Source: Methanotrichaceae archaeon
Lineage (GTDB): Archaea > Halobacteriota > Methanosarcinia > Methanotrichales > Methanotrichaceae
DNA: 64,000 bases
NCBI GenBank assembly: GCA_963813075.1
Contig: CAWEXU010000004.1
Location: forward strand, 32,001 to 96,000
Direction of reading: 5' to 3'
In this document: positions 23,230-51,436 of the stretch, piece by piece
Layout of the letters: every line of letters starts with the position of its first letter
Numbering within the stretch: position 1 is the stretch's first letter
Notes under the pieces: model-generated
Seen by the model: only the letters and a program-made list of their open reading frames with translations
Told to the model about the DNA's origin: nothing
The model's database searches: none
Made by a program: the position numbers and the translations under genes

Positions 23230-24550
23230 GTCAACTACCGCGTCCTGAAGGGCGCGGCTTGCGACTACGCAAAAAGTCGTGTCGCGTCTGGCGGGCTGAC
23301 ATTACCGCCCTGAGACTCCAGGATATACCTCAAGTCTCGTGTTCGGTGCTCTATGTTCATAGCACCAGCTCTGTCGGCATGGGTTTCGTAACCGCATTTT
23401 TCGCATCGGAAGGCTACACCGCAGCGGTTAATTCGGCTGATGTGGTTACATCTGGGGCAAGTTTGGGAAGTATATTCAGGATTTACATAGATTACCGCTA
23501 TCCCGGCTTCTTTAGCTTTGTATTCCACGAAAGCCTGTAGTTGCCTGAATGCCCAACTGCTATGCTCGTACCTGAATTCTGTAGAGACTTTGTTTCCCGC
23601 TCTCTTCCTGATGCCCGTCAAATCTTCCATGCCTATTACCGAAACGTCATTATCTATAGCAAATTCTATGAGATCCCTGGATACCTTATGGTTGACGGCA
23701 GTCATGAACCGTGTCTCTCGACCTGCTATTTTTCTAAGAGTTGTCATAGAAGATCGAGTGCCCAAATATCGACCGCCTGCTTTCTGCAATCTCCGGCGTT
23801 CCTTGGATCGGATGTTTCGGTGATTCTTGATTTCACCACCTGCGAAGAATTTGCATTGCTTGTCCGTGGTAGATGCAACCGCGAGACAGTTAATACCGAC
23901 ATCAACACCCATGAAAGTGGATGCATCAACTATATTCTTATCTGGAATATCCTTTGCACAGGCCAAATGGAAAAAGTAAGCTCCGTTCTTATGTAAACAA
24001 AGCTTGGATGCCAGATATTTCCAGGACCCGTCTAAATATCTCTGAGCATACTGGTAATTCCAGAGCTTATATCTCCTTCGACCCGCTAATGTGGTTATGC
24101 TCAAGGTATCTTTGGATAAGCCAAAATCGCGTTCAAAGGAGAATGTAGCCGAGGTTGGATCGAAATCGAGTAATTGCCATTCTGATTCTCTTTTGTCGAT
24201 CTGACTCTGAAGTGTTTTGTAAGCTCCTGAAACCTGGCGAGCTACATTGCAAGCCATCTGAGATTTCAGGTTAAGATTGTTCCGCAGATGCTTGTAAGTG
24301 GCTTTTTGGATAAGTCCACTTCCAACAGGCTTGCCAATTTCAAACACGATTTGCGAGGCATAATTCATGCCTTGAGAGAACGCTTTTAGCAACTCTGCTA
24401 GATCATTATCCGATGCATCTAATTTCAGGATAATGGTCTTTGTGAGCTGCATGGCTTGTTATATTCACTTAATGCTATATATTTTTATCTCAGGTGAAGA
24501 TATTTATACGCGCTCCTCCCCACCGCAAACGATGGAGACTCCGCGCTGCT
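23230..24550 (-). mobile_element. IS200/IS605-family tnpB-only (IS1341-like) element; left end approximate
   Basis: Right end ...CAAGCCGCGCCCTTCAGGACGCGGTAGTTGAC at 23230; subterminal hairpin at ~24510-24547; no tnpA. Confidence 0.85.
23265..24452 (-). CDS. tnpB: TnpB RNA-guided nuclease
   Basis: RuvC GVDVG / MEDL / ADRAGAMNI intact; TSQTCPRC..CEKC zinc finger. Confidence 0.95.
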   Translation of the reverse strand: MQLTKTIILKLDASDNDLAELLKAFSQGMNYASQIVFEIGKPVGSGLIQKATYKHLRNNLNLKSQMACNVARQVSGAYKTLQSQIDKRESEWQLLDFDPTSATFSFERDFGLSKDTLSITTLAGRRRYKLWNYQYAQRYLDGSWKYLASKLCLHKNGAYFFHLACAKDIPDKNIVDASTFMGVDVGINCLAVASTTDKQCKFFAGGEIKNHRNIRSKERRRLQKAGGRYLGTRSSMTTLRKIAGRETRFMTAVNHKVSRDLIEFAIDNDVSVIGMEDLTGIRKRAGNKVSTEFRYEHSSWAFRQLQAFVEYKAKEAGIAVIYVNPEYTSQTCPRCNHISRINRCGVAFRCEKCGYETHADRAGAMNIEHRTRDLRYILESQGGNVSPPDATRLFA

Positions 24551-24734
24551 GCGAGTTGAAGGTTGTTGTCTTAATCGCGAGGCTGCAAGCTGGGAGGAGA
24601 CCGTTCGGGATATCGCACTAACTATATTTAAAAATATCATCAGAAGAATAAATTAACCATAAGGTTGCGCCATTTTAATAGTTGCCCTCTGTCCCGAAAA
24701 CTAGATATATCTATAACGAATAAAAAAGTATTTT

Positions 24735-25180
24735 GCCGCGTGATACCCTCGAATAGATGCGGACTGATAAGCCGATTAAGCCTTTGCCGGCCAATCATCC
24801 TGGCAATGGGTGATTGATCTCATCCTCCATCAAAGAGCCAGATCAATCAAGCTGGGCCGGATGGCGCCGCACGAATAAAGGTGCAGGTCTTCGGCAGTCT
24901 GGCGAAAACGCCATTGAGCGCAATATAAGATCCTGTCGCCAAGTCTGCATGATGATGATCGCGGAGCGGGTAGTGCGAAGGAATGAGCCATGAAAGATCC
25001 CTCACCACCGGTGATCGGGTCCCCGTAAAAAGGGCGCTGTGCAAGAATCCAGTGCTGTCTGGCTTCTTCCTCGCATTGGCTGAGGGCGGGATGAGACAGC
25101 CACATAATATGCGGATCTGTTTCCTCTTGAGGGGAGCGCTGTGGCCTGGCGTTTGTCCTGCCTCTATCTCACCTGCTAAT
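24735..25180 (+). ncRNA. Candidate large structured ncRNA, family unknown
   Basis: Nested long-range helices with G-U pairs on + strand, upstream BRE/TATA-like motif, no credible ORF. Confidence 0.55.
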
Positions 25181-50331: not shown

Positions 50332-50652
50332 ATGGATTCCAGCAAGCAAAAAGCCATTGATGAGTTCATTAAGAGGGCGACTCAGTCTTACGGAGACCAA
50401 ATCCGGAGCATCACTCTCTTTGGCTCTGTTGCTAGGGGCACAGATCGGCCTGACTCGGATATCGATCTTTTGGTGGTGGTGGACAGAGAGGACTTCCGGC
50501 TGCGTCGAGAGCTGATCGGCCTGACATTCGATATTCTGCTGGAAACAGGAGAAGATATCTCGGTGAGGGTTCTCTCCCAGAATGACTTTGAAGCCAAAAG
50601 GTCTTTCTCCTTCTTGAGTAACGTCCTATCCGAGGGTATCAAGATTGCCTGA
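50332..50652 (+). CDS. Minimal nucleotidyltransferase (MNT antitoxin)
   Basis: LFGSVARG...SDIDLLVV. Confidence 0.9.
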   Translation: MDSSKQKAIDEFIKRATQSYGDQIRSITLFGSVARGTDRPDSDIDLLVVVDREDFRLRRELIGLTFDILLETGEDISVRVLSQNDFEAKRSFSFLSNVLSEGIKIA

Positions 50653-50695
50653 AGATTGAAAAAAGCCACTTAGCAATCACGGAAGCGGAAGAGTC
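50645..50695 (+). pseudogene. 5' stub of probable HEPN toxin gene
   Basis: LKIEKSHLAITEAEES overlapping the MNT stop, cut at 50696. Confidence 0.45.
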
Positions 50696-51001
50696 GTCAA
50701 CTACCGCGTCCTGAAGGGCGCGGCTTGCGACTACGCAAAAAGTCGTGTCGCGTTTGGCCGGTTGACACAAGACTAGCGAAGTCCTGAGGGATCATAGATT
50801 TCTCTCTACCCTGGCGACCTGCTTTGCATGGAGATCTTAACGCCGTTGTTGCCGAATCTTTCCATTCGGCTCAGATCATCCCCTTACAGGAATCATGCCG
50901 CGCAAAGCGATTTGTCTTTCATTCACCGTCTTACTCCGGTAGATCCGGAGTGCCCTACCTCATAGAGGCGAAAGACTGTTGCCCGAGTGCATCGGGGAAC
51001 T
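50696..51001 (-). ncRNA. Protein-free IS605 right-end derivative / candidate stand-alone TnpB omegaRNA
   Basis: 69/72 nt identical to 23230-23301; the remainder is nested helices; TATA-like box upstream. Confidence 0.7.
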
Positions 51002-51127
51002 AAGCTTATATAGTATGTGATACTATTTAAGACTTATGTTCACTAACATACAGTTGATGAGGCTGAGAACGGGTTCGTCTGCAGAATGGAAAAAGCTATG
51101 AGCAATCAAGGAATGGAAGAGTCATAA

Positions 51128-51436
51128 ATGAATACAATCAACGTTATTTGCTGCTTTGCTGCCATCCTTCTTCTGGCCGCCGGCACCCTGGCTGAGCCCT
51201 CGATGAAGCTCGACGGAAGCGCAGGCAAATTGATTCTCGCTCAGCTAGCGGATCAGGGCCAGAATCAGAGCGAAATGAGCAATCAAACGAATGAGACGGA
51301 AAACCAGAGCAAAAATCAGACATTAGAGGGACTCTGGAGCTGGGGCGGCGTGCCTTCCGGCTTTACTCTGAACCAATCATCGGGAAAGCTGGAGGCGGTT
51401 CCCACCGGCGAGGCGGATTGGCTGGCTAATATCTAA
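51128..51436 (+). CDS. Small secreted hypothetical protein
   Basis: Signal peptide, Asn/Gln-rich, LWSWGGVPSG. Confidence 0.7.
   Translation: MNTINVICCFAAILLLAAGTLAEPSMKLDGSAGKLILAQLADQGQNQSEMSNQTNETENQSKNQTLEGLWSWGGVPSGFTLNQSSGKLEAVPTGEADWLANI

Follow-up and report, generated by a model that had tools for sequence, protein, structure and literature searches.

Analysis of a 64,000-nucleotide stretch of DNA from a Methanotrichaceae archaeon (hereafter the window) revealed that the site at 50670..51035 harbors a copy of a mobile non-autonomous transposon. Judged from sequence conservation, the element specifies a real, selected and structured RNA on the minus strand, whose 3' part appears to rebuild the core of a native TnpB omegaRNA and whose extra folded domains seem to be uncatalogued, being without a match in Rfam. 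The likely partner of this RNA is a TTTAT-type TnpB family of 353 aa and not the 395-aa TnpB encoded in the window. An earlier note on this DNA had read the site as an omegaRNA-like gene on the minus strand that stands alone, folds and has its own promoter, serving the TnpB 27 kb away or a relative and possibly on its way to domestication; the description of the gene stands, and the partner and the domestication are not supported.

The full unit is a nuclease-less IS200/IS605 element of ~517 bp whose contents are a TATA box, an RNA of ~306 nt and the right end. Counting the genome copies and comparing their flanks, as the earlier note had proposed, gave three copies including the window's; the siblings on contigs C31 and C30 are 97% and 95% identical to it over 50696-51081, and the right flanks of the three are unrelated. 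No ORF of at least 70 aa lies inside any of the three copies, and no tnpB was found at the window site (50670..51035), which bears out the earlier description. Past the equivalent of 51081, the C31 and C30 copies go on with a small ORF in divergent orientation and a left end with a hairpin, preceded by TTTAT in C31 and by the variant TCTAT in C30; the unit in the window reaches at least 51081. Subterminal hairpins at both ends, the left one preceded by a short target motif, were found in C31, in C30 and in 29 of 50 loci of type A, the subfamily of the window copy.

At the site matching C31 in a relative (genome G035), the upstream motif is followed directly by the guide at a clean junction from which precisely the element is missing, and the empty site reads TATAA. 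In a contig of run X2, only 29 letters separate 50666 from 51127, which indicates that the window site also occurs as an empty allele; this allele lacks TTTAT. Such mobility, the empty sites elsewhere and the diversity of type A guides (40 different among 50 loci, which by itself makes domestication unlikely) argue against the proposed step toward domestication. With its mobility and its site-specific guide differences, the element looks like a parasite, not a domesticated gene. An IS200-like gene with similar end hairpins (C4:312559-312912) is a candidate TnpA. TTTAT insertion sites lie on a start codon in the window (51124-51130) and on a TATA-like motif in C31 (G000:C31:64350), suggesting that insertions may often strike expression signals.

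The window copy lacks a left end and carries an atypical diverged duplication. A broken remnant of the divergent small ORF, 21 codons long, is found on the plus strand at 51036..51101; the ORF is intact in C31, where its 46-aa product is Pfam DUF7557 (RHH-like), and open in C30. In place of the left end there is a mosaic stretch (51058..51123, assigned to neither strand) that aligns with both the DUF7557 ORF and the right flank and in which 51115-23 is a 9-nt exact match to the start of the guide, followed by the TTTAT target/TAM motif on the minus strand (51124..51128), which overlaps the start codon of ORF 51128-51436. Loss of the left end is possibly an assembly artefact, and the mosaic may have arisen either through genuine recombination or through the merging of filled and empty alleles into one consensus. 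The mosaic, or a target-site duplication, accounts for the guide match 430 bp away; when off-site targets of five standalone guides were sought, the sole match to TAM and seed listed was this local one at 51115-28. With its left end gone as assembled, the window copy would no longer move. On the other side of the site, a nucleotidyltransferase gene (PF01909) occupies 50332-50656, and the sequence past 50656 differs in three public runs; a partner gene has possibly been lost here, although this is a guess.

On the minus strand, the predicted RNA begins with a 5' hairpin, P1 (50982..51001), followed by domain 1 (50914..50976), a three-way junction of P2, P3 and P4 in which conserved motifs at 50949-59 and 50921-31 stay single-stranded. 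The next segment (50815..50908) comprises domain 2, in which helix P5, the equivalent of the first stem in native omegaRNA, is expanded by the GNRA hairpin P6 and by P7 and P8, and the 5' arm of P9 (50815-19). An insertion in the P9 loop (50767..50814), with hairpin P11 (50770-84) and a K-turn-like motif (50788-811), is missing from native omegaRNAs. The omegaRNA core (50727..50766) contains the GUCAAC pseudoknot strand (50761-66), the 3' arm of P9 (50756-60) and P12 (50727-51); its layout is that of native tnpB 3' ends, and covariation is present. The IS200/IS605 right end (50696..50724) contributes a subterminal hairpin (50703-24) and the terminal GUUGAC (50696-701), the 3' strand of the predicted pseudoknot. 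Here the scaffold ends, and a variable 3' guide from the flank follows, predicted as the 20 nt just outside the right end (50676..50695), where it had been placed before, and different in each copy. The five helices named previously were all located on this strand, at 50970-76/50914-20, after 50949, and at 50902-08/50821-27, 50879-92 and 50851-70.

In a hand-drawn structure of 70 pairs, 94.6% of 1308 cells were paired across 19 type A sequences, compared with 77.9% in a shuffle control (0/500 as high) and 30-43% in a slid control; both controls flatter the structure, because the model is based on the window sequence and the 19 sequences are relatives of one another. Compensatory change on both sides was observed in 47 of the 70 modelled pairs among the 19 homologs. 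A crude covariation listing was too noisy and was superseded by the 70-pair test and an unguided mutual-information ranking, which recovered most of the same helices. The minus strand is favored by an excess of G-U over A-C cells in the paired columns (103 vs 23). The P6 loop conforms to GNRA in 24 of 38 type A and 6 of 9 type B RNAs, and its reverse complement never does. Single-sequence folding (z of -2.1 for the minus and -1.9 for the plus strand) leaves the strand undecided by itself. The pseudoknot strands form six complementary pairs in all 19 type A sequences and are invariant, so that the pseudoknot has no covariation support within type A, where the helix never varies; a G-U variant occurs in type B and in the TCAAC TnpB family. 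The A-U versus G-U difference reported previously for the GUCA(A/G)C:GUUGAC helix is real.

Native tnpB ends present, in order, a stem, the P9 stem with a GUCA(A/G)C loop, another stem, the right-end hairpin and GUUGAC, and the native core of the TTTAT family measures ~109 nt. The 306-nt RNA keeps the native order and adds the 5' hairpin with the three-way junction, the expanded first stem and the P9-loop insertion. K-turns, which are binding sites of L7Ae, are defined by tandem G.A pairs, a 3-nt bulge ending in U and flanking stems. A strict K-turn pattern was matched, always at a single position, by 13 of 34 type A RNAs, the window's among them, compared with 3.4% of shuffled sequences and 3 reverse-strand matches, and by 0 of 21 RNAs of types B, C and D, while a loose tandem-GA pattern is unspecific, ~60% of shuffles matching it. 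By eye only, the RNA presumably bears some likeness to a T-loop or to RNase P. A search of the window against Rfam, using gathering and E-value thresholds, returned two tRNAs only and nothing meaningful at the site, the recommended HEARO model giving no match. The ~440-nt stretch just upstream of the tnpB element (24735-25175) showed no similarity to the present RNA family.

An archaeal TATA box, CTTAAATA, is located at 51024..51031 on the minus strand, as claimed previously, and its spacing predicts a transcription start at ~51001. A TATA-like box ~22-29 nt before the first conserved base is kept, by eye, in 30 type A and 11 type C upstream regions that are otherwise varied. The inverted repeat between box and start (51011..51025, on neither strand in particular) is a candidate operator for the small, presumably DNA-binding protein of the DUF7557 ORF. 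Scanning with a bacterial promoter model gave no match. RNA-library contigs, which do not reveal the strand and may be DNA, cover the element at low depth; in X17 they span 50696-50986, and one contig stops at 50986.

Among 105 genomes of Methanotrichaceae, 52 match the element DNA, mostly at the right end only, and 26 match the 5'-domain profile, including one CRISPR spacer and one fragment. A phylum-wide DNA search matched 8 of 401 genomes, convincingly only G000 (the genome of the window) and G044. Pattern scans found 18 stretches in genome contigs, 17 of them named Methanothrix, Methanosaeta or Methanotrichaceae, and at least 121 in metagenomes; among 120 viral loci, four are true type A copies and 116 were not confirmed by profile. 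One pattern match in Chloroflexia was rejected, as it lacked a right end. Pooling of the listed loci yielded 106 distinct cores, from which 22 that could be put down to chance or to the ends of ordinary tnpB genes were removed. The 84 that were kept fall into four subfamilies among the matches listed (A 52, B 16, C 14, D 2), hosted by Methanotrichaceae, a sister family, metagenomes and four viral contigs. Type D matches 7 of 59 genomes of one genus in a second family. The profile model R1 kept only 3 pairs and so behaves as a sequence profile.

A same-strand TnpB within 1.5 kb upstream was found at 0 of the 84 listed loci (at least 500 nt upstream was present in 42), and one upstream TnpB match belongs to a neighboring element on the other strand. 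The small ORF is present in 20 of 45 type A, 4 of 13 type C and 0 of 15 type B loci. Two type B siblings in this genome (G000:C6:63104-63495 and C5:147125-147515) are ~390 bp long, have a TCAAC left end and lack the small ORF. A 39-nt CRISPR spacer (L426:1503-1541, G024:C21) matches in its 3' part the type A domain 1 as found in the viral copies, which suggests that the element arrives on invading DNA; an exact search with the first 28 nt of the spacer matched 0 viral contigs. On an IMG/VR contig (L313:1350-2670), a type A element is nested with the remnant of a tnpB, a left end of B type and a further B-like RNA element whose left end is inverted. Decayed or truncated RNA copies (L423 in G100:C82, L434 in G296 and L427 in G077) point to turnover of the family.

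The genome contains 14 TnpB-domain matches. Over 70-71 nt, the left end of C31 shows no difference from three copies of the 353-aa TnpB family and matches a fourth at 98.6%; the copies lie on C9, C5, C30 and C27, and the family keeps three RuvC acidic residues by eye. Two 353-aa tnpB genes are damaged (G000:C27:7673-8446 and C30:381345-382521), one being internally deleted with both ends kept and the other frameshifted. The left-end motif is TTTAT in 10 of 15 members of the 353-aa family, TCAAC in 3 of 4 of the window's family and TTCAT in 4 of 7 of a third, the rest being unmatched by the pattern. With exceptions, the RNA subfamilies match these motifs: TTTAT precedes type A in 29 of 50 loci (16 with no end found), TCAAC type B in 10 of 14 and TTCAT type C in 7 of 14. 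Similarly, the core variant is GUCAAC in types A and C and in the TTTAT and TTCAT families, and GUCAGC in type B and the TCAAC family. According to the passages on TAMs in 10.1101/2023.03.14.532601, elements of this family have their TAM immediately ahead of the left end, so that only a TTTAT-type TnpB would cut the empty site of the element. TnpB of the TTTAT family occurs in 9 of 19 carriers and 9 of 85 other genomes, and that of the window family in 5 of 19 and 6 of 85, a comparison that does not separate the candidates and that uses a carrier list compiled by hand. A close TTTAT-family TnpB is missing in 10 of the 19 carriers.

The reading that we consider probable is that of a nuclease-less transposon of the PATE type, in which a TATA-driven conserved RNA would act as an enlarged omegaRNA, probably loading a TnpB produced by TTTAT-type elements elsewhere in the genome. 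The element would be moved in trans by a Y1 TnpA, for which the IS200-like gene on C4 is a candidate. In this scheme, of which transcription, loading and cutting are the parts that we infer, the TATA box at its conserved fixed distance would drive an RNA of ~306 nt that reads into the flank, the 3' core would bind TnpB, and the flank guide would direct a cut at TTTAT followed by the empty site. Recombination at the cut empty site would then restore the element after excision, as in the retention model set out in passages of 10.1101/2023.03.14.532601. The added domains, including a K-turn that may bind L7Ae, could speculatively stabilize the RNA or aid its competition with the cis omegaRNA. As a tentative extension, the family may be an ancient line of SINE-like RNAs that parasitize TnpB. 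An independently transcribed guide RNA of several domains would use the extra ones (K-turn/L7Ae, three-way junction) to capture TnpB from its producer elements, would on at least three occasions have been paired anew, through swaps of ends and core, with TnpB families that differ in TAM, and would spread among archaeal chromosomes and viruses.

This mechanism does not explain the conservation of the ~200 extra nt. Also counting against it are the invariant pseudoknot, the empty sites of G035 (TATAA) and X2 (no TTTAT), the undiscriminating co-occurrence, the restriction of the strict K-turn to a minority of type A RNAs, and the evident swapping of right-end modules between families, seen in the 58-nt identity with the TCAAC family, by which shared ends may mislead on partners. 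It is conceivable, if unlikely, that the extra domains are a functional cargo, either a ribozyme or a platform for some other partner, to which the omegaRNA-like tail is secondary. Consistent with a cargo, domains 1 and 2 are rich in compensatory changes, native cores manage with just ~109 nt, and the single-stranded motifs of domain 1 are kept across subfamilies at ~51% mean column identity, the invariance of one of them being partly built in because it was in the search pattern. Conversely, no Rfam model matches the RNA, the core variants track the TnpB family, and all 19 sequences keep the strands of P9 and of the pseudoknot, which TnpA is not known to need.

We regard as improbable a role of the RNA as a decoy or inhibitor of TnpB that guides no cuts and damps the nuclease on behalf of the element or of a carrier virus. 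The copies in four viral contigs and the G024 spacer matching domain 1 would suit such a role, as would the inhibition of AmaTnpB by an mRNA region described in part of PMC10278001. In each subfamily, however, the left-end motif is that of the candidate partner, a correspondence relevant to empty-site cutting and not to a decoy; shared ends could, on the other hand, stem from descent alone.

Service to the 395-aa TnpB of the window, by a cassette on its way to domestication, likewise seems to us poorly credible. That TnpB is encoded on the minus strand by a separate element (23230..24559) with a TCAAC left end and a right-end module in common with the RNA element. The relationship noted previously was confirmed: 50696-50753 equals 23230-23287 base for base, and BLAST aligns 72 nt at 95.8% (69/72). 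This 58-nt identity, the enrichment of the family in carriers (5 of 19), the missing left end of the window copy and the TTTAT with a 9-nt seed match at a start codon 430 bp off all speak for the proposal. Against it, the TCAAC left end and GUCAGC core of the window TnpB resemble type B and not type A, the type B elements on C6 and C5 are better candidates for it, and the TTTAT left end of the C31 sibling disagrees with TCAAC, leaving only the loose qualifier "or a relative" to fit. Moreover, guides differ widely (40 among 50 loci), and the seed match is explained by target-site duplication or may be an assembly mosaic.

Lastly, it is hardly tenable that the 5' part derives from the decay of a tnpB 3' end and has no selected function. 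Domain 1 does show a loose colinear resemblance to the TTTAT-family codons for the zinc finger and RuvC-III (mean z 1.3; 2 of 20 above 2), faintly compatible with remote tnpB descent, but this signal is weak and not position-specific (the stretch is outside the top 6 along the gene). Covariation is extensive, and the 5' profiles match 0 of the 14 tnpB copies in the genome, in agreement with the earlier statement that this part is unlike a tnpB 3' end; no decayed tnpB is detectable, and the absence of selection is largely refuted.

Guide-only elements that are proposed to borrow a nuclease are known; the enlarged folded domains are uncatalogued, and the partner code can be tested. Our search of the literature found no description of this RNA family, and supplements, which were outside the search, could hold such elements. 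The family addresses the question of how guide-only elements compete with a guide cut from TnpB's own mRNA. Three RNA subfamilies and three candidate TnpB families constitute natural test pairs, and a single genome holds type A and type B RNAs together with all three TnpB families. The ~300-nt archaeal RNA architecture is itself uncatalogued, and compact editors could profit from what its added domains teach about the stability of guide RNAs.

Large structured RNAs inside IS200/IS605 elements are also found as the HEARO/IscB omegaRNA and the group I introns of IStrons. In the IscB/HEARO arrangement, the RNA reads inward from the right end, opposite to the present RNA; a corresponding reading of the opposite strand was rejected on the basis of the G-U bias, the GNRA loops and the lack of an Rfam match. 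Group I introns of IStrons require a terminal G at the right end, and this identity was rejected as well, there being no Rfam intron match and the element ending in C in 19 of 19 sequences. Trans activity of standalone omegaRNAs has reportedly been demonstrated for IscB, which uses a 5' guide; unlike those RNAs, the present one has a 3' guide of the TnpB type, and its trans activity is predicted.

Standalone omegaRNAs acting in trans are described in passages of PMC10691335, and the likeness extends to a mobilized RNA that lacks effector and transposase in a genome that holds effector loci. The archaeal RHH/MazE-TnpB clade, as presented in the same passages, combines a small RHH-like gene with a long non-coding 3' region, much as here; the present element differs from it in having no tnpB and in the divergent orientation of its small ORF relative to the RNA. 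The omegaRNA (reRNA) of ISDra2 TnpB, for which part of PMC10097598 describes a pseudoknot beside the guide, shares the right-flank guide preceded by a right-end stem and a pseudoknot, the latter being predicted in our case. In contrast to it, the present RNA overlaps no ORF and would not be cut from an mRNA, while its length lies within the range of 79-466 nt given for processed omegaRNAs in part of PMC10278001. Lastly, PATEs are gene-less elements that often encode omegaRNAs needing TnpB in trans, according to passages of Meers et al. (10.1101/2023.03.14.532601), and the present element resembles them in having both ends, no tnpA or tnpB, a predicted omegaRNA at the right end and a presumable need for TnpA and TnpB in trans. 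Compared with these text passages on PATEs, it is distinguished by a dedicated TATA box of conserved position, by ~200 nt of extra covarying structure, by an often present divergent DUF7557 ORF and by four subfamilies matched to different TnpB families.
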